Part shown: piece after piece, positions 4,353-14,777 of the stretch | How the letters are laid out: every line of letters starts with the position of its first letter | Position numbering within the stretch: the first letter of the stretch is position 1 | Assembly: GCA_031394435.1 (NCBI GenBank) | Contig: JANNTQ010000081.1 | Location: 186 to 64,185 of the forward strand | Source of the DNA: Betaproteobacteria bacterium | GTDB taxonomy: Bacteria; Pseudomonadota; Gammaproteobacteria; Burkholderiales; SG8-39 | Length of the DNA stretch: 64,000 bases | Reading direction: 5' to 3' | Made by a program: the position numbers and the translations under genes | Notes under the pieces: generated by a model | Databases searched by the model: none | The model's input: only the letters and a program-made list of their open reading frames with translations | Told to the model about the DNA's origin: nothing

Positions 4353-6359
4353 ATGGTTTCCGTCGTCCAGCTACACCCGCAAAACAGCGCTGCCGCGCTA
4401 GAGCCGCTGACCGAAGGGCTGTCGGGCGGGGAGCGCGCACTGCTCGCGCGCGCGCTCGAGTTCGCCGAGCCGCTGTACGCCGGACAGGTGCTGTCCACCG
4501 GAGAACCGGTGTGGCCGCACGCGCTGGGGCTCGGCGCGAATCTTGCCGCGATCGGCATGGACCCGGCGGCGCGCGCCGCCGGGGTGCTGTTCGCGGCGCC
4601 GAAGTACCTGGGTGGCACGCAGAAGCTGGCGGAAGGGTTCGGCGCGGAGGTCGCTGGCCTCGCCGACGGCGTGGAGAAGCTCTACCAGCTGCGCGTGCTG
4701 ACGCGCGCCAACGCCGCGCAGCAGAGCGAAGTGCTGCGCAAGATGGTGCTCGGCATGGTGCAGGACGTGCGCGTCGTGCTGATTCGTCTGGCGAGCCGCA
4801 CGCAGACGCTGCGCTGGTTTGCCAAGCACGCGAGCGAGGATCGGCGCGCCTACGCGCAGGAGACGCTGGACATCTACGCGCCGCTGGCCAACCGGCTCGG
4901 CGTATGGCAGCTCAAGTGGGAACTGGAGGACCTGTCGTTCCGCTTCCTCGAGCCCGAGGTGTACCGCAGGATCGCCAAGATGCTGGACGAGCGCCGCGTC
5001 GAGCGCGAGCAGTACATCGCGCAGGCCATGGCGGCGCTCGGCGGCGAGCTGCAGGCCGCCGGCGTGCGGGGCGAGGTCAGCGGCCGGCCCAAGCACATCA
5101 CCTCGATCTGGAACAAGATGCAGGTGAAGGGCCTGGACTACGAGCAGGTGCACGACGTGCGCGCACTGCGCGTGATCGTGCCCAGCGTGCAGGACTGTTA
5201 CGCCGCGCTCGGCGTGGCGCACAATCTGTGGCAGCCGATCGCGCGCGAGTTCGACGACTACATTTCGCGCCCGAAGGGCAACCTGTACCAATCGCTGCAT
5301 ACCGCGGTGCTCGGGCCGGGCGGCAAGACGCTGGAAGTGCAGATCCGTACCGAGGAGATGCATCGCCACGCCGAGCTCGGCGTGGCGGCGCACTGGCGCT
5401 ACAAGGAGGCCGGCAAGGCGACTCGCGCAGACAGCGCCTTCGACGACAAGATCGCCTGGCTGCGGCAGTTGCTCGCCTGGCGCGACGAGATCACAGACCG
5501 CGCTTCGTGGACCGAGCAGACGCAACGCGCGGCGCTCGACGACACCATCTACGCCGTCACGCCGCAGGGCAAGGTGGTGGACCTGCCCTTTGGCTCCACG
5601 CCGATCGACTTCGCCTACGCGCTGCACACCGACCTCGGCCACCGCTGCCGCGGCGCCAAGGTGGATGGGCACATCGTGCCGCTCGATACTGCGCTGCAGA
5701 GCGGGCAGCGCGTGGAGATCACCGTCGCCAAGACTGGCGGCCCATCACGCGACTGGTTGAGCGCCGAGCGCGGGTTCCTGAAAACCAGCCGCGCGCGCGC
5801 CAAGGCGCGCCACTGGTTCAAGCTGCGGGAAGGCGGCCGGGAAGCGGAAGCAGCGCCCAAACCAAGACTGGTGCCGGCGCCGGCCGCGCCCGCGCCGCGC
5901 AAGCGCAAGGCCGCGGTGGCGGGCAGCGGCATCCTGGTGGTGGGTATTGACCGCCTGTTGACGCAGCTCGCCAAGTGCTGCAAGCCGGTGCCGCCCGACC
6001 CGATCCGCGGCTTCGTCACACGCGGGCGCGGCGTATCCATCCACCGGGAGGACTGCGCGAGTTTCAAGCGCCTGGCGCAGACCGATCCCGCGCGCCTCAT
6101 CGACGCGCAGTGGGGCGGCGCTGCCGGCGCCTACAGCGTGGACATGGTGGTGACCGCGAGCGACCGGCCGGGCCTGCTGCGCGACATCGGCGATGCGCTC
6201 GCGCGCGAGCGCATCAATGTCACGGCGGTGCGCACACAGAGCCGGGACGAGATCGCCCTCATGCGTTTTTCATATGAGGTGGGGGACGTGGCGCAGTTGA
6301 GGCGCGCGTTCGCGGTGGTGCGCGATGTGGCTGGCGTGATGCGCGTGGCGCGCGGCTGA
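4353..6359 (+). CDS. relA: GTP pyrophosphokinase RelA ((p)ppGpp synthetase I)
   Basis: Synthetase motifs HDVRALRVIV and YISRPKGNLYQSLHTAV. TGS segment IYAVTPQGKVVDLPFGSTPIDFAY and a C-terminal ACT-like domain. The N-terminal HD region is degenerate. Start taken at the first ATG after the divergent transporter gene. Confidence 0.9.
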   Translation: MVSVVQLHPQNSAAALEPLTEGLSGGERALLARALEFAEPLYAGQVLSTGEPVWPHALGLGANLAAIGMDPAARAAGVLFAAPKYLGGTQKLAEGFGAEVAGLADGVEKLYQLRVLTRANAAQQSEVLRKMVLGMVQDVRVVLIRLASRTQTLRWFAKHASEDRRAYAQETLDIYAPLANRLGVWQLKWELEDLSFRFLEPEVYRRIAKMLDERRVEREQYIAQAMAALGGELQAAGVRGEVSGRPKHITSIWNKMQVKGLDYEQVHDVRALRVIVPSVQDCYAALGVAHNLWQPIAREFDDYISRPKGNLYQSLHTAVLGPGGKTLEVQIRTEEMHRHAELGVAAHWRYKEAGKATRADSAFDDKIAWLRQLLAWRDEITDRASWTEQTQRAALDDTIYAVTPQGKVVDLPFGSTPIDFAYALHTDLGHRCRGAKVDGHIVPLDTALQSGQRVEITVAKTGGPSRDWLSAERGFLKTSRARAKARHWFKLREGGREAEAAPKPRLVPAPAAPAPRKRKAAVAGSGILVVGIDRLLTQLAKCCKPVPPDPIRGFVTRGRGVSIHREDCASFKRLAQTDPARLIDAQWGGAAGAYSVDMVVTASDRPGLLRDIGDALARERINVTAVRTQSRDEIALMRFSYEVGDVAQLRRAFAVVRDVAGVMRVARG

Positions 6360-6365
6360 TGGAAT

Positions 6366-6863
6366 ATGATCGCCCGCTCGGCTGTTAAGCTGGGCACGCA
6401 TGCAGAGGAGCTCTTGAATACTCCCGCCGTCCAGACGCGCTACGGGACGGGCGCGCAAGCACTCCACTGGCTCATGTTCCTGTTGATTGCCGCCATGTAC
6501 TTCATCGGCCTGTCGATGGTCGCGATGGAAGTCAGCCCCGAGCGCCTGCGCTACTTTTCATTGCACAAGTACGTGGCGAAATTCCCTACAATCAGCTTTG
6601 GCGCGCCGAGCGTGCAACTGGTCGGAGAGGCGCCAACGCGTGTGCCAGGCACGCTGACCATGCTGGGAGTCACCAGGCCGCTGACGCTGGAGGTAAGCCG
6701 GTTCCGCTGCATGGATCACCCGTTCCAGAAGGCCAGGGAACTCTGCGGTGGCGATGCTGCGGTGACCATCAAGCGCTCGGAGTGGGGCATGAAGCACTTG
6801 ATTCCGGCCGTGGGTGACGACATCCGACTGGACATCCAGCTCGAGGCGGTGCGGGAAAAATAA
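6366..6863 (+). pseudogene. Chimeric ORF: cytochrome b561 N-terminus (~1 TM) fused in frame to the C-terminal half of a YceI-like protein
   Basis: Residues ~20-67 (TRYGTGAQALHWLMFLLIAAMYFIG..YFSLHK) match the start of CybB-type cytochrome b561. From ..AKFPTISF.. to ..GTLTMLGVTRPLTLEV..IKRSEWGM..IRLDIQLEAV it matches the YceI C-terminal half. The junction lies near 6570-6578. Confidence 0.55.
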
Positions 6864-6872
6864 GGAGAACGG

Positions 6873-7038
6873 TTACAGCCGGGGCAGCAGGACCAGCAGC
6901 CACACGGCGGCGAGCGCGGCGAGAGCCATCATCACCGCGGCGCTGCCGAGGTCCTTGGCGCGCTTGGCAAGCTGGTGATCCTCGAGCGAAATGCGTTCCA
7001 CGGTCGCCTCGCTCGCGGAGTTGAGCAGCTCGACCACC
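6873..7038 (-). pseudogene. 3' remnant (~54 codons) of a second diacylglycerol kinase gene
   Basis: 6871-7038 aligns without gaps to 10563-10730 (3' end of the intact dgkA) at roughly 80% identity. It encodes VVELLNSASEATVERISLEDHQLAKRAKDLGSAAVMMALAALAAVWLLVLLPRL. The N-terminal two thirds are absent. Confidence 0.8.
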
Positions 7039-7266
7039 GACGAGCACCTGAGGAGCGCCGACTTTTTCAACGTCGCGGAATTCCCGCGCATGACCTTCAA
7101 GGCCTCCGATGTGAAGTTCAACGGCGATAACCCTACCGAAGTCACGGGCGAACTCACGCTGCTCGGCGTCACCAAGCCGCTTACGCTGAAGATCGAGCGC
7201 TGGGTGTGCAAGGACAACCCCTTCAACAAGAAGCCGATCGTCGGGTTCGAGGGCTACAAGGACTAG
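7039..7266 (+). pseudogene. YceI-like gene fragment, truncated at both 5' and 3' ends
   Basis: DEHLRSADFFNVAEFPRMTFKASDVKF..GELTLLGVTKPLTLKI matches the central YceI region. It starts directly at the dgkA-remnant junction and stops early (..GFEGYKD*) compared with the copy at 6366-6863. Confidence 0.65.
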
Positions 7267-7321
7267 TTTCACCGAAGCGTCACCAATCCTTCACGGGCGG
7301 GTCATCCTCGGGGACCAGGAT
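7266..7321 (+). promoter_or_regulatory. Pho-box-like array plus -10-like hexamer upstream of the Zn-PLC-superfamily gene
   Basis: GTTTCAC-N4-GCGTCAC-N4-CCTTCAC-N4-GGGTCAT (heptamers end at 7272, 7283, 7294, 7305; exact 11-bp period). Then 10 bp, then CAGGAT (7316-7321). Confidence 0.55.
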
Positions 7322-7329
7322 GCTCGCCC

Positions 7330-8118
7330 GTGCAGGCCGTCCTTCTCGCCGTTCCCCTGCTGCTGTTCGCCGGCGACGCCCTCGCCTGGGGACTGCAGAC
7401 GCACCTCTACTTCGCGCAGCAAGTCCTGTTCGCGGTCCCGCTGCTGGATCCGGAGATCCGCCGCGCGGCACTGAGGTTACCCCGCCTGGTGCTGGCCGGC
7501 GCCTGCCTGCCCGACATTTCGCTCGTCGGCAGCGTGCTGGGCATTCGCCTGTTCCGCAGCACGCACCAGTGGGCGACGCTGCGCAGGCTCGCCGCCGCCA
7601 ATTGTGACGAGGAGCGTGCTGTGGCGCTGGGCTATGCCAGCCACCTGATGTCCGACGTAATGGCGCACAACTGCTTTGTGCCCGAGCACGAGCGGCGCGT
7701 AGCCGACGTGGCGTACGCGACGCATGCGCTGTGCGAATGGGCGATGGACGACTACCTCAAGCCCTGGGTGTGCGCCGTGCCTGGTGAACTGCTGGCGGCG
7801 GAACGCAGGCCGCTGGCGCAGATCGTCGCGCGGCGCTGGCACTGCAGCGAGCCGCTGGCGCTGCGCGCCATCGACTGGCTTTCCGGCGCCGACCGCCTGC
7901 TGCGCGCTGCGCGCATGCCGCGCATTTGTGGCGCCCTGCTGCGATTCGTCGATCAGCGCCTCGCGCCGAGATTCGACGCCTACGTACGCGACACCTCGAC
8001 ACTGCTGGTCCAGGTGGGCGCGGTTCTGGAGGGCCGCCAGCCCGTGGCGCAGGCCGAGCCGAAACGTCCTTCCGCCTTCTGGCGCACGGGCAAGCTGTTG
8101 CCCCAGCCGCCACTTTGA
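7330..8118 (+). CDS. Secreted zinc-dependent phospholipase C / S1-P1 nuclease superfamily protein
   Basis: 262-aa ORF with a GTG start. The signal peptide ends ..GDALA|WGLQTH, so the mature protein would begin with Trp as in Zn-PLC and P1 nuclease. Metal motif ..GYASHLMSDVMAH... Confidence 0.7.
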   Translation: MQAVLLAVPLLLFAGDALAWGLQTHLYFAQQVLFAVPLLDPEIRRAALRLPRLVLAGACLPDISLVGSVLGIRLFRSTHQWATLRRLAAANCDEERAVALGYASHLMSDVMAHNCFVPEHERRVADVAYATHALCEWAMDDYLKPWVCAVPGELLAAERRPLAQIVARRWHCSEPLALRAIDWLSGADRLLRAARMPRICGALLRFVDQRLAPRFDAYVRDTSTLLVQVGAVLEGRQPVAQAEPKRPSAFWRTGKLLPQPPL

Positions 8119-8819
8119 ACTGCGGTCCTCGCAGCCTGCGCCGCGTCCCGGCGGCCCAGGCGGTGGGTGGCAATGGCGCCGCAGCAGCGGATTTCCAGCG
8201 TCAGCGAAGGCAAGCCTGCGATCATGCACAGGGACTGCCACAGATTCATGTCGCCGAGATAGGCAGCCTCGATGCACCGCCTGCCGGCGCGATCGCGGTA
8301 ATCGAGCGCGAGCGCCCGCACGGGATGGCCGCCCGCCACTGCGGCCTGGAACAGCGCGGGCCGAAACGGCAGCAGCTGCACGCCGTCCGTGGTGGTCCCT
8401 TCTGGAAACATGGCGACGGACTCGCCTCGCGCGAGCCGTAGCGAGATGTCTGCGTTGACTAGCAGCAAGGCGCGGCAGGCGCGGCGCTCGACGAACAGTG
8501 TTTCATTGCGCGCCAGCATGCGACCGAGCAGGGGCCACCGGTGCGCCTCGGCCTTGGCGACGATCGCCGCGGGGAGCAGCGCATGCAGTGCGACGGCATC
8601 GAGCCAAGACACGTGATTGGCGACCACCAAGCTGCCGGGCGCAATTCGCAGCGCGCCGCACTCGAGCCGCACGCCGAGCATGCGTAGCAGGTCGCGCGCC
8701 CAGGCGCGGCGCACGGCCAGGCGCGCTTGCGGTCCTAGCAGCGGATAAAGCCATGCGCTCAGCGCGCAACCGGCCGCCAGGTGCAGGCCCACGCGCGACA
8801 GGCGCAGGGTCCGCCTCAC
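7980..8819 (-). CDS. Lysophospholipid (PlsC-family) acyltransferase; OlsA candidate
   Basis: NHVSWLD (HX4D) and FPEGTT motifs. The start overlaps the PAP2 stop. The C-terminal ~46 codons overlap the convergent gene at 7330-8118. Confidence 0.8.
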   Translation of the reverse strand: MRRTLRLSRVGLHLAAGCALSAWLYPLLGPQARLAVRRAWARDLLRMLGVRLECGALRIAPGSLVVANHVSWLDAVALHALLPAAIVAKAEAHRWPLLGRMLARNETLFVERRACRALLLVNADISLRLARGESVAMFPEGTTTDGVQLLPFRPALFQAAVAGGHPVRALALDYRDRAGRRCIEAAYLGDMNLWQSLCMIAGLPSLTLEIRCCGAIATHRLGRRDAAQAARTAVQSGGWGNSLPVRQKAEGRFGSACATGWRPSRTAPTWTSSVEVSRT

Positions 8820-9349
8820 GCAATGGCGATCGAGGCCGTGGCCACCGCGGCGCCGATCAGCGCCCCGGCCAGCACGTCGCTCGGGTAGTGCAGGCCCAGC
8901 ACCACGCGCGAGGCCGCGGTGAGCAGCGCGAAGGGCAGCAGCAGTGGCGCGAGCGATGGCCAGTAGTCGAGGGCGACCAGGGTAAACCCCACGGCGTGCA
9001 GCGTATGACCCGAGGGAAAACTGAATGCATCCAGCGGCGCGGTGCCGGCTGCCACGCGCGGCAGCGCCTGGTAGGGGCGCGGGCGCAGAGTGCTTCTCTT
9101 CAGCATCTTGTAGGCCGCGGTGCAGACCACGCCGACGAACAGCATGTGCAGCACCGGCAGTGCCGCCTCGCGCGGCTGGCGCAGCAGCAGCGCGAGCATC
9201 AGTGCGTACCAGAAGATGCCGTTGCCGAGCCAGCTGACCAGTTGCGCGACCTGCAGCAGCGGGCGGTAATGCAGCCAGCGGTTGGAACGCTGGCAGACGC
9301 GCTCGTCCCAGCGCTGCAGACGCTCGAGCGCACCTTCAAGCCGCGGCAT
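8816..9349 (-). CDS. PAP2-family phosphatase (phosphatidic acid phosphatase type 2-like)
   Basis: 177-aa membrane ORF with the tripartite PAP2 motif Kx6RP (KRSTLRPRP), PSGH (FPSGHT) and SRx5Hx3D (SRVVLGLHYPSD). Confidence 0.85.
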   Translation of the reverse strand: MPRLEGALERLQRWDERVCQRSNRWLHYRPLLQVAQLVSWLGNGIFWYALMLALLLRQPREAALPVLHMLFVGVVCTAAYKMLKRSTLRPRPYQALPRVAAGTAPLDAFSFPSGHTLHAVGFTLVALDYWPSLAPLLLPFALLTAASRVVLGLHYPSDVLAGALIGAAVATASIAIA

Positions 9350-10505
9350 GCGCCGCCTCCCGGCGCACGGAAGAGGGCTGCGCTGCGCCGAGCAGCACCG
9401 CTTCGAAATCGGCGGTGATGCACTCCCAGCTGACCGGTTCGGCAGCAGCGCGCGCGGCGCGGCCGAGTTCGCGCGCTAGCGCGGGCTCGCGCGCCAGCCG
9501 CTCGGCCTGGGCGATGAAGCCGGCGTGGTCGCCAGGTTCCGCGAGCAGCCCGGAGCGCCCGTGCTCGAGGTGCTGGCGCGCTGCAGCGTAGCGGTAGGCG
9601 ACGATGGCAAGTCCGCTCGCCGCCGCTTCCAGCGTGACATTGCCGAAGGTCTCGGTGACGCTGGGAAACAGAAACACGTCCGCCGAGGCGTAGTGCGCCG
9701 AGAGTTCGCCGTTCACCAGCCGGCCGGCGATCACGCTGCCGGTATCGGCATTGCGCAACTCTGCTAGCAGCGGTCCGTCGCCGACCAGCACCAGCCGCGT
9801 GGCGGGATTGAGGTGGCGCATCGCCTCGTAGGCCTCGATCACCAGCGGGAAGTTCTTCTCCGGCGCGAATCGGCTGACGCACAAGGCCACCAGGTCCCGT
9901 TCGCCGGCGCCCCATTGCGCGCGCAGCTCCGCGCGGCGCTTTGCCGGGGAGAAGGTCTGCGCATTGACCCCGCGTCCCACGACGCGCAGGCGCTCGAAGC
10001 CCAGGCGCGCCAGTGCTTCGGCCATCTCGCCGGTGGGCACCATGGTGCAGTCGCAGCGGTTGTGAAAGCGGCGCAGCACCGCGGCCACCGGGCGTGCCAG
10101 CCAGGCGAGGCCGTAGTGCCGGCTGTAGGCATGAAAATTGGTGTGGAAATCGCTCGCCACCGGCAAGCCGAGCTTGCGCGCGGCGGCGATCGCCGACCAG
10201 CCGAGGGGGCCTTCGGTGGCGACGTGGACCACGTCGGGACGCTGATCGCCCCATGCGCGCAGCAGCGCGCGCCGCGACGGCAACCCCATCTTCAACTGCG
10301 TGTAGCGCGGTATGGGAATACCGGGGCGCAGCAGTTCTTGATAGTTCGCGCCGGTGCGGGCCGCCGTGTCACTGCGGTTCTGGCGCGGTCGCACCAGCTG
10401 GATCGAATGGCCGAGTGCGCGCAGACCGTCGGCCATCAGCGCGACGGTGCGCGCCACGCCGTTGACCTCCGGCGGGTAGGTCTCGGTCACCATGGCGATG
10501 TGCAT
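9336..10505 (-). CDS. GT4-family glycosyltransferase (SqdX / DAG-glycosyltransferase-like)
   Basis: 389 aa from MHIAMVTETYPPEVNGVARTV.., a typical GT4 N-terminus. C-terminal ..FPSVTETFGNVTLEAAASG.. (EX7E region). An alternative start exists at 10532. Confidence 0.85.
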   Translation of the reverse strand: MHIAMVTETYPPEVNGVARTVALMADGLRALGHSIQLVRPRQNRSDTAARTGANYQELLRPGIPIPRYTQLKMGLPSRRALLRAWGDQRPDVVHVATEGPLGWSAIAAARKLGLPVASDFHTNFHAYSRHYGLAWLARPVAAVLRRFHNRCDCTMVPTGEMAEALARLGFERLRVVGRGVNAQTFSPAKRRAELRAQWGAGERDLVALCVSRFAPEKNFPLVIEAYEAMRHLNPATRLVLVGDGPLLAELRNADTGSVIAGRLVNGELSAHYASADVFLFPSVTETFGNVTLEAAASGLAIVAYRYAAARQHLEHGRSGLLAEPGDHAGFIAQAERLAREPALARELGRAARAAAEPVSWECITADFEAVLLGAAQPSSVRREAAHAAA

Positions 10506-10514
10506 GCGGCGCGC

Positions 10515-10570
10515 AGTCTGCGTGCCGCGCATGAATTTTCGATGAAGCTTTTGTGAGCTTTCGGTTACAG
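10515..10570 (-). promoter_or_regulatory. Pho-box-like array plus -10-like hexamer upstream of the GT4 gene
   Basis: Minus strand: CTGTAAC-N4-AGCTCAC-N4-GCTTCAT-N4-AATTCAT, then 10 bp, then CAGACT, then 9 nt before the ATG at 10505. The first heptamer contains the dgkA stop codon. Confidence 0.55.
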
Positions 10571-10978
10571 CCGGGGGAGCAGGACCAGCAGCCAGACCAC
10601 CGCGACGCTCACAAGAGACATCATCACTGCGGCGCTGCCGAGGTCCTTGGCGCGCTTGGCGAGGCGATGGTCCTCGAGTGAGACGCGGTCCACTGTCGCC
10701 TCGACTGCGGAATTGAGCAGCTCGACCACCAGCACCAGCAGCACGCTGCCCACCAGCAGGGCGCGCTCGAGGCCGTCGTTGCCCAGCCACAGCCCGAGCG
10801 GCACCATAGCAGCAGCAAGCAACAGTTCCTGGCGAAACGCATCCTCGTGGCGCGCCGCGGCGGCAAAGCCCTCGAACGAATAGCGCGCCGCGTTGATCAG
10901 GCGCTGCAGGCCGGTCTTGCCCTTGAAGGGACTCTCGCCATTCATCGCGCGGCGGAATGTAGCACGCACTGCTGTCAT
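10565..10978 (-). CDS. dgkA: Diacylglycerol kinase
   Basis: 137-aa 3-TM ORF, ..RYSFEGFAAAARHEDAFRQE..ELLNSAVEATVDRVSLEDHRLAKRAKDLGSAAV... Confidence 0.9.
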   Translation of the reverse strand: MTAVRATFRRAMNGESPFKGKTGLQRLINAARYSFEGFAAAARHEDAFRQELLLAAAMVPLGLWLGNDGLERALLVGSVLLVLVVELLNSAVEATVDRVSLEDHRLAKRAKDLGSAAVMMSLVSVAVVWLLVLLPRL

Positions 10979-11027
10979 CGAGATTTCACCGTCGCGTCAC
11001 TCCGGCGTCATGCGATCCGCCTAGATT
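10972..11027 (+). promoter_or_regulatory. Pho-box-like array plus -10 hexamer upstream of olsB
   Basis: CTGTCAT-N4-ATTTCAC-N4-GCGTCAC-N4-GCGTCAT (heptamers end at 10978, 10989, 11000, 11011). Then 10 bp, then TAGATT (11022-11027). The first heptamer contains the dgkA start codon on the other strand. Confidence 0.6.
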
Positions 11028-11060
11028 GCGCCCCGTTCGAGCAACCGAAAGGGCGCGAGC

Positions 11061-11831
11061 ATGGAGCACATCGACGAGCTGCTGGTGCAGCACCCGGGCA
11101 CCGAGGCGCGCGCGCGGCGCCGTCTTTCCGTGGGTTTCGCGCGTTCGCCCCAGTTGCTGCGCGCCGCGCAGGCGCTGCGCTGGCGGGTGTTCGTCGACGA
11201 GCTTGGCGCACGGCTCGAGTCGCGCGAGCCGGGCATCGATCAGGACATTTTCGACGCCCATTGCGAGCACCTCGTGGCGCGGGATGACGACACAGGCGAG
11301 GTGGTCGGCACCTACCGGCTGCTGCCGCCGGCAGCAGCCCGGCGTGTAGGCAGCTACTACGCGGAGACCGAGTTCGACCTGACGCGGCTATGGCTATTGC
11401 GCGCACGCATGGTGGAAGTGGGGCGCTCGTGCATCCACCCGGACTACCGCAACGGCGCAGCGATCGGCCTGCTGTGGGCGGGCCTTACCCGCTACATGCT
11501 GGCGCAGGGGCACGAATACCTAGCGGGCTGCGCTTCGATGGGCATGGCGGACGGCGGCCATGCCGCGGCGTCTGTCTACGCACGCCTCGGCGAGCGCTGC
11601 CATGCGCCGATCGAATACCGCGTGTTTCCGCGTTGCCCGCTGCCGCTGGATCGCCTGGACGCCGGCGCGGGCGGCGCGCTGCCCGCGCTGATCAAGGCCT
11701 ACCTGCGCGCCGGCGCCTGGATCTGCGGCGAGCCGGCCTGGGACCCGGACTTCAACACCGCCGACTTCTTCGTCCTGCTGCCGCTGGCCAACGTCGCGCC
11801 GCGCTACACGCGGCACTACCTCAAAAAATAG
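11061..11831 (+). CDS. olsB: Ornithine-acyl-ACP N-acyltransferase (GNAT, OlsB family)
   Basis: 256 aa. AQALRWRVFVDELGA.., ..VVGTYRLL.., ..EVGRSCIHPDYRNG.., ..LPALIKAYLRAGAW..FNTADFFVLL follow the OlsB/Acetyltransf_5 pattern. Confidence 0.8.
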   Translation: MEHIDELLVQHPGTEARARRRLSVGFARSPQLLRAAQALRWRVFVDELGARLESREPGIDQDIFDAHCEHLVARDDDTGEVVGTYRLLPPAAARRVGSYYAETEFDLTRLWLLRARMVEVGRSCIHPDYRNGAAIGLLWAGLTRYMLAQGHEYLAGCASMGMADGGHAAASVYARLGERCHAPIEYRVFPRCPLPLDRLDAGAGGALPALIKAYLRAGAWICGEPAWDPDFNTADFFVLLPLANVAPRYTRHYLKK

Positions 11832-11847
11832 GGTCCGTCCCCTTTTT

Positions 11848-13929
11848 CTACGACGGAGTTGCGAGGGTGAAGAGCAGTTCTTCCTGCGCCGAGCGGCGCC
11901 GGCCGCGGCGCGGCTTGACGCGCGCGTAGCTGCCGTCGGCGTCCATCGCCCAGGCCTGGCAGTTGTCGTCGAGGTAGGGCTGCAGGCCTTCGCGCACCAC
12001 GCGGCGCTTCAACGCCGGGTCGAGCACCGGAAAGCACAACTCGATGCGGCGGAAGAAGTTGCGCCCCATCCAGTCCGCGCTCGCCAGGTAGACGTCCTCG
12101 GCGCCGGCATTGTGGAAGTAGAACACCCGCGAGTGCTCGAGGAAGCGCCCGATCACCGAGCGCACGCGGATATTCTCCGACAGGCCCTCGATGCCCGGCC
12201 GCAGCGCGCACACGCCGCGCACGATGAGGTCGACCTTCACGCCAGCCTGCGATGCCAGGTACAGCTCGTCGATCGCCTGCGAGTCGAGCAGCGAGTTCAT
12301 CTTGGCGATGATGCGCGCCGGCTGGCCGTCGCGCGCCAGGCGAGCCTCGTTCTGGATCGCGGCGAGCATCCGCTTGTGCAGCGTGAAGGGCGACTGCCAG
12401 AGGTGCTTCATCTTGCCGGCACGCCCCAGGCCGGTGAGCTGCTTGAACACCTCGGCCACGTCGGCGCACAGGTCTTCGTTGGAAGTGATCAGGCCGAAGT
12501 CCGTATACAGGCGGGCGGTTCGCGGGTGGTAGTTGCCCGTGGCCAGATGCACGTAGCGCCGCAGCACCTTGCCGGACTCGGCGTCTTCACGGCGCACGAT
12601 CAACGCCATCTTGGCGTGCGTCTTGTGGCCGACCACGCCGTAGACCACGTGCGCGCCCACCTCCTCCAGACGCGCCGCCCAGTTGAGGTTGGCTTCCTCG
12701 TCAAAGCGCGCCATCAGCTCCACCACCACGGTCACTTCCTTGCCGCGGCGCGCCGCATCCACCAGGATCTCCATCAGCTCCGAATCGGTGCCGGTGCGGT
12801 ACACCGTCTGCTTGATCGCGATTACGTTCGGGTCCGCCGCGGAGGTGCGGATGAAGTCGATCACCGGCTTGAACGACTGGTAAGGGTGATGCAGCAGCAC
12901 GTCCTGCTTCTTCAGCAGATCGAACAGGTCACTTTGCTCCACCAGCGGCGCCGGCAGTCCGGGCTGGAACGGCGGGAACTTGAGGTTGGGCCCGTCCACG
13001 CGGTCGGGGACCTCGCGCAGGCGAACCAGGTTGACCGGGCCCTCGACCCGGTACAGATCCTCGTCGCGCAGGCCGAACTGCTGCAACAGGAAGTCGACCA
13101 TCGGCTGCGAGCAGTTGTCGGCCACCTCCAGCCGCACCGCGTCGCCGAAATGGCGGTGCAGCAGTTCGCCTTTTAACGCGGTGTGCAGGTTCTTGATTTC
13201 CTCCTCGTCCACGAACAGGTCGGAATTGCGCGTGACGCGAAACTGGTAGCAGCCAAGCACTTTCATGCCGGCGAACAGCTCGTCGACGTGAGCGTGCAGG
13301 ATCGAGGACAGAAAGACGAAGCAGTGGTGCGCGCCGCCGATACCGTGCGGCAGGCGGATGACGCGCGGCAGGGCGCGCGGCGCCTGCACGATCGCCGCGC
13401 CCGAGTTGCGTCCGAAAGCGTCGCGGCCGACCAGTTCCACCGCGAGGTTCAGACTCTTGTTGAGCACCTTGGGAAACGGGTGCGCCGGGTCCAGGCCGAT
13501 CGGCGTCAGCACCGGCAGCAGCTCGCGGAAGAAGTAGTCGCGGATCCACTGTTTCTGCGCCGCGGTCCACTGCTCGCGCCGCGGGAACAGGATGCCCGCG
13601 TCGGCCAGCGCCGGCAGCACAACATCATTGAGCAGCCGGTACTGCTCGGCCACGATGGCGCGCGCTTCACGGCTCACGGCCTCGAACACCTCCAGCGGCC
13701 CCTTGCCGTCGGGGCCGGGTTCGGGCAGGTTGAGCTTGATCTGCTCCTTCAGGCCGGCGACGCGGATCTCGAAGAATTCGTCGAGATTGCCCGAAACGAT
13801 GGTGAGGAAGCGCAGGCGCTCGAGCAGCGGCACAGAGTCATCCGCGGCCTGTGCGAGCACGCGCCGGTTGAACTCGAGCAGGCCGAGTTCGCGGTTCAGG
13901 TAGTGCGCTGCGGGCAGGTCTCTTTTCAT
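11848..13929 (-). CDS. ppk1: Polyphosphate kinase 1
   Basis: 693-aa ORF, YLNRELGLLEFNRRVL.. N-terminus and full-length PPK1 architecture. Confidence 0.95.
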   Translation of the reverse strand: MKRDLPAAHYLNRELGLLEFNRRVLAQAADDSVPLLERLRFLTIVSGNLDEFFEIRVAGLKEQIKLNLPEPGPDGKGPLEVFEAVSREARAIVAEQYRLLNDVVLPALADAGILFPRREQWTAAQKQWIRDYFFRELLPVLTPIGLDPAHPFPKVLNKSLNLAVELVGRDAFGRNSGAAIVQAPRALPRVIRLPHGIGGAHHCFVFLSSILHAHVDELFAGMKVLGCYQFRVTRNSDLFVDEEEIKNLHTALKGELLHRHFGDAVRLEVADNCSQPMVDFLLQQFGLRDEDLYRVEGPVNLVRLREVPDRVDGPNLKFPPFQPGLPAPLVEQSDLFDLLKKQDVLLHHPYQSFKPVIDFIRTSAADPNVIAIKQTVYRTGTDSELMEILVDAARRGKEVTVVVELMARFDEEANLNWAARLEEVGAHVVYGVVGHKTHAKMALIVRREDAESGKVLRRYVHLATGNYHPRTARLYTDFGLITSNEDLCADVAEVFKQLTGLGRAGKMKHLWQSPFTLHKRMLAAIQNEARLARDGQPARIIAKMNSLLDSQAIDELYLASQAGVKVDLIVRGVCALRPGIEGLSENIRVRSVIGRFLEHSRVFYFHNAGAEDVYLASADWMGRNFFRRIELCFPVLDPALKRRVVREGLQPYLDDNCQAWAMDADGSYARVKPRRGRRRSAQEELLFTLATPS

Positions 13930-13967
13930 CGCGGGAGGCCGCAGGGACGCGGCTCGCGGAGGGGCGC

Positions 13968-14012
13968 ATCCTACGCCATTGGAATGACAATATGGTTACA
14001 GACAGGTTACAT
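13968..14012 (-). promoter_or_regulatory. Pho-box-like array plus -10 hexamer upstream of ppk1
   Basis: Minus strand: ATGTAAC-N4-CTGTAAC-N4-TTGTCAT (14012-13984), then 10 bp, then TAGGAT (13973-13968). Confidence 0.6.
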
Positions 14013-14020
14013 GCAGCGCT

Positions 14021-14054
14021 GCGCAACCGGACTGTCACATTCGCAAGCTAGGCT
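14021..14054 (+). promoter_or_regulatory. Weaker Pho-box-like element upstream of phoU
   Basis: GCGCAAC-N4-CTGTCAC (14032-14038), then 10 bp, then TAGGCT (14049-14054). Only one heptamer is a good match. Confidence 0.3.
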
Positions 14055-14063
14055 GTGGGCCGC

Positions 14064-14777
14064 ATGTCCACGCCGCAGCCGCCCCATACCTCGAAGGACT
14101 ACGACCAGCAACTCGCACAGGCGCATGCGCTGGTGCTGCAAATGGGCGCGCGCGTCGAGCGCCAGGTTGTGGATGCCATCGAATGCCTGGCCTCGGGGTC
14201 GGTCGCGCTCATCAACTGGGTGCTGCGCCATGAGGTCGTGATCAACGCGATGGAACTTTCCATCGACGAACTCGCGTGCCAGATCATCGCGCGCCGCCAG
14301 CCCGCGGCCAACGACCTGCGCCTGCTGACCGCCGTGCTGAAGGCGACGACCGATCTGGAGCGCGTCGGGGACGAAGCGAAGAAGATCGCGCTGCAGGCGC
14401 GCAAGGCGCGGGCCGATGGCGGCTCGCGACTGCCGCGCCAGGCCGAAGTGCGGCGCATGGCGCAGCTCGCGCTCGGCATGCTGCGGCGTGCGCTCAGCGC
14501 ATTCGAGCGGCTCGATCTCGAAGGCACCGCCGAAGTCGTACGCCGCGACGCGGAAGTGAACGACGCGTTTCTCGTCATCCTGCGCCAGCTGGTCACCAGC
14601 ATGGTCGAGGACCCGCGCAGCATCTCCGTCAACCTCGAATTGCTGTTCGTCGCCAAGGCGCTCGAGCGCATCGGCGACCACGCCAAGAACATCGCCCAGC
14701 ACGCCATCTATGCGGTGAAGGGCGCCGATATGCGCCACGCCTCGGTGGCCGAGATCGAGCAGGAACTGCGCGGCTAG
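14064..14777 (+). CDS. phoU: Phosphate signalling complex protein PhoU (stand-alone, not next to pst genes)
   Basis: 237 aa from the ATG at 14064 (the track ORF starts at GTG 14055). Two PhoU repeats with ..DLERVGDEAKKIA.. and ..ALERIGDHAKNIA... Confidence 0.9.
   Translation: MSTPQPPHTSKDYDQQLAQAHALVLQMGARVERQVVDAIECLASGSVALINWVLRHEVVINAMELSIDELACQIIARRQPAANDLRLLTAVLKATTDLERVGDEAKKIALQARKARADGGSRLPRQAEVRRMAQLALGMLRRALSAFERLDLEGTAEVVRRDAEVNDAFLVILRQLVTSMVEDPRSISVNLELLFVAKALERIGDHAKNIAQHAIYAVKGADMRHASVAEIEQELRG

Follow-up and report, generated by a model that had tools for sequence, protein, structure and literature searches.

A Pho-box-associated betaproteobacterial locus predicted to couple glycolipid and ornithine-lipid synthesis to an exported PF00882 enzyme

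Gene content of the locus

The DNA analysed here, referred to as the window, is a stretch of 64,000 nt from a Betaproteobacteria bacterium (Burkholderiales, SG8-39; assembly GCA_031394435.1, contig JANNTQ010000081.1, positions 186 to 64,185 of the forward strand). It carries a gene cluster, in a region of ~68% GC, that we interpret as a candidate phosphate-regulated lipid-renovation locus. The cluster encodes a secreted phospholipase C (PLC)-like protein of the zinc-dependent PLC (Zn-PLC) type, a GT4 glycosyltransferase, a PAP2 phosphatase, an acyltransferase, the diacylglycerol kinase DgkA and a predicted ornithine acyltransferase, OlsB (Table 1). All six genes had been described in an earlier note on this DNA, and all were recovered at the locus when genes were called from an open reading frame (ORF) listing combined with Pfam and NCBIfam profile scans; the neighbouring ppk1 and phoU-ppx genes are likewise where the note placed them. 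On its upstream side the PLC-like gene is preceded by a relA/spoT-like gene. Because the GT4 and PAP2 genes overlap by 14 nt and the PAP2 and acyltransferase genes by 4 nt, the three are likely to be translationally coupled, as had been proposed.

For comparison we used a set of 80 related loci, labelled from L001, from uncultured Burkholderiales/Betaproteobacteria, Gallionellaceae (Sideroxydans, Gallionella, Sideroxyarcus) and Thiobacillaceae. An ATG at 10532 was considered as the start of the GT4 gene and ruled out, being absent from L003-L005. Met12 of the dgkA ORF, at 10945, may be an alternative start for that gene.

Table 1. Genes and promoter elements at the locus, in window coordinates
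Feature	Position	Strand	Remarks
Pho boxes, PLC-like gene	7266-7305	+	GTTTCAC-N4-GCGTCAC-N4-CCTTCAC-N4-GGGTCAT
-10-like hexamer CAGGAT, PLC-like gene	7316-7321	+	10 nt past last heptamer, 8 nt before GTG
PLC-like gene, 262 aa	7330-8118	+	PF00882; no NCBIfam model
Acyltransferase gene (predicted OlsA-like), last gene of the GT4 operon	7980-8819	-	PF01553
PAP2 integral-membrane lipid phosphate phosphatase gene, 177 aa	8816-9349	-	PF01569
GT4 glycosyltransferase gene (predicted Agt2 type)	9336-10505	-	PF13439 and PF00534; ATG 10505-10503
-10-like hexamer CAGACT, GT4	10520-10515	-	10 nt past last heptamer, 9 nt before ATG
Pho boxes, GT4	10531-10570	-	CTGTAAC-N4-AGCTCAC-N4-GCTTCAT-N4-AATTCAT
dgkA, prokaryotic diacylglycerol kinase	10565-10978	-	PF01219, 120.9 bits
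Pho boxes, olsB	10972-11011	+	CTGTCAT-N4-ATTTCAC-N4-GCGTCAC-N4-GCGTCAT
-10 hexamer TAGATT, olsB	11022-11027	+	10 nt past last heptamer
olsB, predicted ornithine N-alpha-acyltransferase	11061-11831	+	PF13444, 123 bits
ppk1	11848-13929	-	TIGR03705, 952 bits
Pho box, ppk1	13984-14012	-	ATGTAAC-N4-CTGTAAC-N4-TTGTCAT, then 10 nt, TAGGAT
phoU-like gene, then ppx	14055-14777, ppx to 16312	+	PF01895; PF02541 with PF21447

Pho-box arrays in the promoters of the lipid genes

The promoters of the PLC-like gene, the GT4 gene and olsB each contain an array of four NNNTCAY 7-bp direct repeats separated by 4-bp spacers, giving an 11-bp phase. The corresponding pattern, TCAY-N7-TCAY-N7-TCAY-N7-TCAY with at most one mismatch, is matched three times in the 64 kb, where shuffled sequence predicts 0.00 matches, and its three-repeat version five times, where 0.03 would be expected. 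Every array match falls within one of these three promoters, which gives substance to Pho-box-like sequences that had merely been suspected earlier. The phased pattern was adopted after the Escherichia coli Pho-box consensus, CTGTCAT-N4-CTGTCAT (PMC8528852), had given a count at chance level, with two sites matching at three mismatches or fewer. A scan of positions 6300-14200 for the sigma-70 -35/-10 consensus returned no promoter, as expected if transcription is PhoB-dependent. Exactly 10 nt separate the last repeat from a -10-like hexamer in all three lipid promoters; in E. coli Pho promoters the box ends 10 bp before the -10 element, and the layout as a whole is that of a classical Pho-box promoter.

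In a promoter alignment this geometry of array, 10-nt gap and -10 hexamer is retained across L001-L017 though the spacers diverge. The array of the PLC-like gene is conserved in L001-L006 and L010, that of the GT4 gene in L002-L008, L011, L016 and L017, and that of olsB in L001-L008, L011 and L017, with the TANNNT pattern of the olsB -10 hexamer kept in nine of the 11 aligned loci. In a broader search, covering the 160 nt that precede the PLC-like gene in 77 related loci, at least three phased repeats were present in 50 of the loci, against 0.009 expected per segment.

The same architecture, with three heptamers, is found at the ppk1 promoter. Phased heptamers (CCGTCAC, GCGTCAC and ACTTCAC) also precede agt2 of Pseudomonas aeruginosa, a gene reported to be induced by phosphate stress and to have a Pho box upstream (PMC8528852), and in L029, from Sideroxydans, the sole array precedes a PLC-like gene that heads a phnF-phnDCE-phnGHI operon, a set of genes canonically under Pho control. 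Because the heptamer array is thus also found before ppk1, P. aeruginosa agt2 and a phn operon, we take it to be the Pho box of this lineage. The three lipid promoters are predicted to be PhoB-controlled, which is the strongest result of the analysis, and it is from these repeats that we infer PhoB binding.

The olsB transcript would have a leader of ~26 nt, in which a Shine-Dalgarno-like GAAAGGG precedes the ATG. Because the start codons of the PLC-like and GT4 genes stand only 8 and 9 nt after their -10-like hexamers, their mRNAs are predicted, given the presumed transcription start sites, to be leaderless or near-leaderless, with no room for a Shine-Dalgarno sequence. The short hexamer-to-start spacing of both genes is conserved in relatives.

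Several of these elements share sequence with neighbouring genes. The stop codon of dgkA lies inside the first heptamer of the GT4 array. The olsB array occupies most of the dgkA-olsB gap (83-116 nt), and its first heptamer (CTGTCAT, 10972-10978) takes in the initial ATG of the opposite-strand dgkA ORF. It is conceivable, if speculative, that PhoB bound to the olsB boxes could hinder transcription of dgkA at low phosphate, steering diacylglycerol (DAG) to glycolipid and not to phosphatidate. On the phoU-ppx side, divergent from ppk1, a single good heptamer is present (CTGTCAC, at ~14033).

The glycosyltransferase and its PAP2 partner

Compared with the glycosyltransferase that P. aeruginosa encodes downstream of plcH-plcR, the GT4 protein shows 48% identity over 371 of 389 aa (329 bits); from its position and the PAO1 gene numbering we take the P. 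aeruginosa gene to be PA0842/Agt2. Purified Agt2 converts DAG and UDP-glucuronate (UDP-GlcA) into glucuronosyl-DAG (GADG), and loss of Agt2 abolishes GADG (PMC8528852). The best NCBIfam matches of the GT4 protein are GlcNAc-phosphatidylglycerol (GlcNAc-PG) synthase, GpgS, at 140 bits with a cut-off of 480, and MGlcDAG synthase, at 111 bits; these too are lipid glycosyltransferases, at a far greater distance than Agt2 (PMC12713373). We predict that the GT4 protein is a UDP-sugar:diacylglycerol glycosyltransferase of the Agt2 type, and its likeness to the characterised enzyme lends in silico support to the earlier suggestion of a lipid glycosyltransferase.

The PAP2 protein has four hydrophobic segments, matches PF01569 at 75.8 bits and retains all three catalytic motifs of the family intact: KX6RP (K84-X6-R91P92), PSGH (as FPSGH) and SRX5HX3D (SRVVLGLHYPSD). 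Paired homologues of the two genes are found in Acinetobacter baumannii, where the glycosyltransferase is 42% and PAP2 44.6% identical; the corresponding values for the pair of Ralstonia wenshanensis are 51% and 43%. Because such coupled orthologous pairs occur in both organisms, agt2-PAP2 is taken to be a conserved module.

In A. baumannii CP035931.1 (L083:4768-4807) the agt2-like glycosyltransferase/PAP2 operon is preceded by the phased heptamers ATGTCAG, CTGTCAT, TTATCAT and GTGTCAA. A gap of 10 nt separates the last of them from TAATCT, and the ATG stands a further 6 nt on, so that the Pho-box, near-leaderless layout of the window recurs here. The literature searched yielded no description of this A. 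baumannii operon.

OlsB and the OlsA-like acyltransferase

The acyltransferase contains the motifs HX4D ('HVSWLD') and 'FPEGTT'. Its two top NCBIfam matches are OlsA models, which score 104.5 and 94.8 bits; the E. coli PlsC model reaches 32.6 bits. On the choice between OlsA and PlsC, which had been left to profile searches, the ranking thus favours OlsA, at scores short of equivalog level. The top matches of the OlsB protein are OlsB models, at 163 and 154 bits. Of the 40 related loci with enough sequence for co-occurrence to be counted, 32 carry olsB together with the acyltransferase gene, six carry neither and two carry a single one of them; in Gallionellaceae the two genes are adjacent. 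The acyltransferase is therefore best described as OlsA-like, a putative lyso-ornithine-lipid O-acyltransferase of the PlsC superfamily, and the model scores and co-occurrence together give in silico support to the proposed OlsB/OlsA-like pair.

The exported PF00882 protein

The PLC-like protein matches PF00882 at 52.8 bits (E 5.7e-14), above the gathering score of 26.8. The same family is matched, beyond that gathering score, by all 64 relatives examined (best E 2.2e-17), whereas the S1-P1 nuclease family, PF02265, is matched by none of them, so that of the two families between which the earlier note had hesitated PF00882 is the one found. When the PLC-like family is clustered at 50% identity, 536 clusters reach E <= 1e-3 and just 48 reach E <= 1e-30. 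A screen of 185,579 species genomes yielded 176 stretches carrying the family.

Residues 1-19 form a hydrophobic leader; the N-terminus reads MQAVLLAVPLLLFAGDALA up to the predicted cleavage site and WG after it, with Ala-x-Ala preceding Trp20. A19 and W20 do not vary among the 64 relatives, and in the superfamily alignment each is kept in 90% or more of the sequences. After signal-peptide cleavage the mature N-terminus is predicted to be Trp20, in agreement with what had been claimed from the single sequence. In Zn-PLCs the amino group of the mature Trp ligates zinc.

The candidate zinc ligands are W20, H25, D62, H79, H105, D109, H113, H132 and E136. Conservation at all nine positions is complete or no lower than 90%, even in the superfamily alignment, where mean identity is 19%. 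As references we used four classical Zn-PLC genes from PLSDB, namely those for Bacillus thuringiensis CerA, Listeria PlcB and one homologue each from Bacillus mycoides and Clostridium acetobutylicum. The residues that all four share without variation are the established zinc ligands H14, D55, H69, H118, D122, H128, H142 and E146. With weak statistics, hhalign pairs H25 with H14, D62 with D55, H105 with H118, D109 with D122, H132 with H142 and E136 with E146, in the same order. AlphaFold2 (AF2) models are all-alpha, with a predicted local distance difference test (pLDDT) score of 86 and a predicted TM-score (pTM) of 0.86 for the full protein, and of 91 and 0.90 for the mature protein. The protein is best regarded as a probable exported tri-zinc enzyme of the Zn-PLC family. 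We infer its lipid substrate, and indeed every substrate assigned at this locus, from family membership and gene context, and do so with the greatest reserve for this enzyme.

Conservation of gene order

Adjacency of the PLC-like and GT4 genes was counted in those loci, 68 in number, whose sequence extends 3 kb or more downstream of the PLC-like gene. The two are convergent in 60 of these, down to 45% identity, and PAP2 is found in 59. Within 5 kb of the GT4 gene, dgkA is present in 33 of the 40 loci suited to co-occurrence counts and olsB in 30. The closest relatives, L001-L008, show the full order relA - PLC - AT - PAP2 - GT4 - dgkA - olsB - ppk1, AT being the acyltransferase gene.

In two Sideroxydans-type metagenome-assembled genomes (L029:7908-14727 and L025) the PLC-like gene, with a four-heptamer Pho box, lies directly 5' of phnF, phnD, phnC, phnE, phnG, phnH and phnI, on the same strand. 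There it apparently opens the C-P lyase cluster.

The 3' ends of the convergent PLC-like and acyltransferase genes share 139 nt (7980-8118), an overlap kept in L001-L006 and L017 and not in L007, L008 and L011. The C-terminal ~45 residues of the acyltransferase resemble a low-complexity read-through tail.

The interval between relA and the PLC-like gene (6366-7266) is a gene scar. It contains a chimeric ORF, 6366-6863 (+), in which an N-terminal fragment of cytochrome b561 is fused to a C-terminal fragment of YceI, then 169 nt, 6870-7038 (-), that duplicate the 3' end of dgkA with ~84% identity to 10562-10730, and lastly a piece of the native yceI gene, 7040-7266 (+), with 89% nucleotide identity to L005. 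A yceI-like sequence (the C-terminal part) also stands just 5' of the PLC-like gene in L004, L005, L006, L015 and L016 and is absent from that position in L001-L003. The dgkA 3'-end repeat was considered as the border of an inserted island carrying the whole cluster, and this was rejected, since close relatives that lack the repeat share the gene order; the second copy is part of a local scar in a yceI gene.

Comparison with characterised systems

To our knowledge, all characterised proteobacterial lipid-renovation systems start with the cytoplasmic metallophosphoesterase PlcP. The PlcP-Agt systems include Sinorhizobium meliloti PlcP, Agrobacterium tumefaciens Agt, those of Phaeobacter and SAR11, P. 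aeruginosa PA3219-PA3218 with PA0842, and Burkholderia cenocepacia, and the locus shares with them Pho-box promoters, a GT4 DAG glycosyltransferase and the logic of releasing DAG and then glycosylating it. A DAG kinase gene adjoins agt in the window as it does in B. cenocepacia, where plcP-agt-dagK forms a phosphate-starvation-induced operon (bioRxiv 10.1101/2023.05.30.542800). Unlike these systems, the locus has no PlcP-type metallophosphoesterase and carries instead, on the opposite strand, a gene for a signal-peptide-bearing PF00882 protein of the predicted tri-zinc type; it also differs in having PAP2 translationally coupled to agt and an olsA-like gene in the same operon. With the OlsB/OlsA pathway of S. 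meliloti it has in common a predicted OlsB-type N-acyltransferase, a predicted OlsA-like O-acyltransferase and a Pho box 5' of olsB, further Pho-regulated examples of which have been reviewed (PMC12971839). It departs from that pathway in that its olsA-like gene lies apart from olsB, third in the agt2-PAP2 operon.

In P. aeruginosa too a secreted phospholipase C is encoded beside agt2, which is preceded by phased heptamers. The phospholipase in that case, PlcH, belongs to a phosphoesterase family unrelated to PF00882 and is exported by Tat, and, unlike at the locus, agt2 has no adjacent PAP2, olsA or dgkA. In P. aeruginosa NZ_CP131792.1 (L081:3062-7203) agt2 is immediately downstream of cerN, plcH and plcR; this record is filed as an 847-kb 'plasmid', yet it carries apparent core chromosomal genes.

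The classical Zn-PLCs (Bacillus cereus PC-PLC/CerA, Listeria monocytogenes PlcB and Clostridium perfringens alpha-toxin) belong to the same Pfam family as the locus protein, PF00882. Both are all-alpha and have, or are predicted to have, a Trp N-terminus after a cleaved leader, with mature lengths of 245 aa for the classical enzymes and 243 aa for the locus protein, which has counterparts of W1, H14, D55, H69, H118, D122, H128, H142 and E146. It is unlike them in carrying its first His at position 6 where theirs is at 14, in the family-specific character of its C-terminal half, and in coming from a Gram-negative host, where it is predicted to be periplasmic and Pho-regulated. S1/P1 nucleases (PF02265) belong to the same structural superfamily as Zn-PLCs, and we take them to share with the locus protein an N-terminal 'WG..(G/T)H', the His at position 6 and the tri-zinc ligand pattern. 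The locus family differs from them in giving no PF02265 match in 64 relatives and no match to the Protein Data Bank (PDB).

The earlier note had regarded the gene combination as a variant not yet characterised. This holds for the PF00882 enzyme, since the literature searched contains no such enzyme as a conserved partner in the place of PlcP, and it does not hold for a DAG kinase gene adjoining agt, which is already known, as are Pho-regulated Agt and OlsBA. Neither Pho-driven coupling of agt2 to PAP2 nor an olsA within such an operon was found in the same literature.

Proposed pathway and alternative explanations

The gene families, the catalytic motifs, the promoter architecture with its conservation and the synteny were established computationally. 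From them we propose that this is a Pho-regulated lipid-renovation locus producing glycolipid and ornithine lipid, with DAG supplied by PAP2 and the PF00882 enzyme, a reading to which we assign a probability of roughly 0.55. At low phosphate, phosphorylated PhoB would bind the tandem Pho boxes at the three promoters and switch on the agt2-like GT4-PAP2-olsA-like operon, olsB and the gene for the exported, putatively tri-zinc PF00882 enzyme. Following signal-peptidase cleavage, the PF00882 enzyme, with its Trp N-terminus and facing the periplasm, would hydrolyse phospholipid to DAG and a phospho-alcohol, so that head-group phosphorus would be freed outside the cytoplasm for re-uptake. PAP2, whose active site would also face the periplasm, would convert phosphatidate to DAG and phosphate. 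DAG would flip spontaneously across the membrane and be glycosylated at the cytoplasmic face by the Agt2-type GT4, probably to glucuronosyl- and/or glucosyl-DAG, with DgkA returning any surplus to phosphatidate and so balancing the DAG pool. OlsB and the OlsA-like acyltransferase would in parallel make ornithine lipid. DAG has to be supplied by either a phosphatidate phosphatase or a PLC (PMC4796936), and a P. aeruginosa plcP mutant keeps residual GADG, pointing to a second DAG source (PMC8528852).

Several results weigh against this proposal. The acyltransferase scores under the OlsA equivalog cut-off of 300, OlsB under the cut-offs of 350 and 320 of its two models, and the GT4 protein under that of its own best model, while the best NCBIfam models for PAP2 are undecaprenyl-diphosphatases (49.6 bits). 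The hhalign comparisons of the PLC-like protein with classical Zn-PLCs are weak (E 0.14 and 0.059), and searches of PDB sequences with phmmer and two profiles gave only chance matches at E <= 10. Foldseek searches of the PDB with both AF2 models likewise found nothing at E < 0.001; the 50 best matches listed include neither a PLC nor a P1 nuclease. Foldseek is weak on all-alpha folds; either it misses a similarity of this kind or the PLC-like branch has diverged strongly in structure. The W1-x4-H6 spacing at the N-terminus is closer to that of P1/S1 nucleases than to that of Zn-PLCs, with their H14. Finally, GT4 and PAP2 are not next to the PLC-like gene in eight of the 68 loci, and in both of these eight that were inspected, L025 and L029, the PLC-like gene heads a phn C-P lyase operon. 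Because of these loci, the lipid link of the PLC-like gene may reflect co-regulation and not a shared pathway; the gene is therefore a member of the Pho regulon first, and a neighbour of lipid genes in most genomes, not all.

Much of this would suit an arrangement in which the Pho-regulated locus makes glycolipid and ornithine lipid without the PF00882 protein, which would be a periplasmic or secreted phosphate-scavenging phosphodiesterase or nuclease, clustered there only through membership of the Pho regulon and acting on external substrates such as nucleic acids, phospholipids or other organophosphates; PAP2, or a PlcP whose gene lies elsewhere, would then supply the DAG. The PLC-like gene is, after all, transcribed separately, towards the lipid operon and from behind its own Pho box, it leads phnF-phnDCE-phnGHI in L025 and L029, its neighbourhood of ppk1, phoU and ppx is phosphate-related, its product begins with the W1-x4-H6 pattern of P1/S1 nucleases, and our searches found no similarity of that product to solved Zn-PLCs. 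We nevertheless consider a stand-alone scavenger the less likely reading, though a live one and the most serious competitor. PF00882 is matched by 64 of 64 relatives and the S1-P1 family by none, the PLC-like gene remains convergent to Agt2-PAP2 in 88% of loci across family-level divergence, and P. aeruginosa likewise places a secreted phospholipase C beside agt2.

The GT4 operon might instead act on another acceptor, such as phosphatidylglycerol (as GpgS does), the lipid A/lipopolysaccharide (LPS) core or an undecaprenyl-linked glycan, in which case PAP2 would be a lipid A or undecaprenyl-diphosphate phosphatase. This would explain why the top NCBIfam model of the GT4 protein is GlcNAc-PG synthase and those of PAP2 are the undecaprenyl-diphosphatase SepP, PgpB and LpxE, and why JGI names members of the cluster 'undecaprenyl-diphosphatase'. 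The GpgS score of 140 against a cut-off of 480 is, however, far outdone by the 329 bits and 48% identity of the Agt2 comparison, and the locus has no GpgD deacetylase, flippase or polysaccharide genes. As these families are usually oriented, the active site of the GT4 would be cytoplasmic and that of PAP2 periplasmic, which makes a sequential lipid A route unlikely; we regard a different acceptor as improbable. Less credible still is the idea that the arrays serve another regulator of the OmpR/PhoB family, responding to Mg2+, pH or iron, and that the lipids are remodelled for reasons other than phosphate economy. A 10-11 bp phase of direct repeats is seen in the binding sites of many OmpR-family regulators, most heptamers of the locus deviate from E. 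coli CTGTCAT at positions 1-3, and matches to the full E. coli consensus are at the chance level given above. Against this stand the TCAY core, the 7+4 spacing and the 10 nt to the -10 hexamer, all of which fit the Pho box (consensus in PMC8528852), and the presence of the same arrays before ppk1, the phosphate-stress-induced agt2 of P. aeruginosa and the phn operon, and we give the idea very little credence.

Implications

Returning to the proposed renovation locus, a narrow branch of PF00882, amounting to about 48 clusters, could represent the lipid-renovation PLC of Betaproteobacteria, including the iron-oxidising Gallionellaceae, working in the periplasm together with PAP2 as a non-orthologous replacement of PlcP. 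We advance this only tentatively and hold it with distinctly less confidence than the broader reading of the locus. If it is true, head-group phosphorus would be released outside the cytoplasm.

Replacement of phospholipids by phosphorus-free lipids is a major bacterial route through phosphate scarcity, and in P. aeruginosa it raises resistance to polymyxin (PMC8528852). The locus suggests a second, periplasm-facing supply of DAG, formed by an exported, putatively tri-zinc enzyme and PAP2, in soil and groundwater Betaproteobacteria and iron oxidisers. The unannotated PLC-like family and the widespread agt2-PAP2 pair, the latter with a Pho-box-like array in the pathogen A. baumannii too, thereby each gain a testable function.

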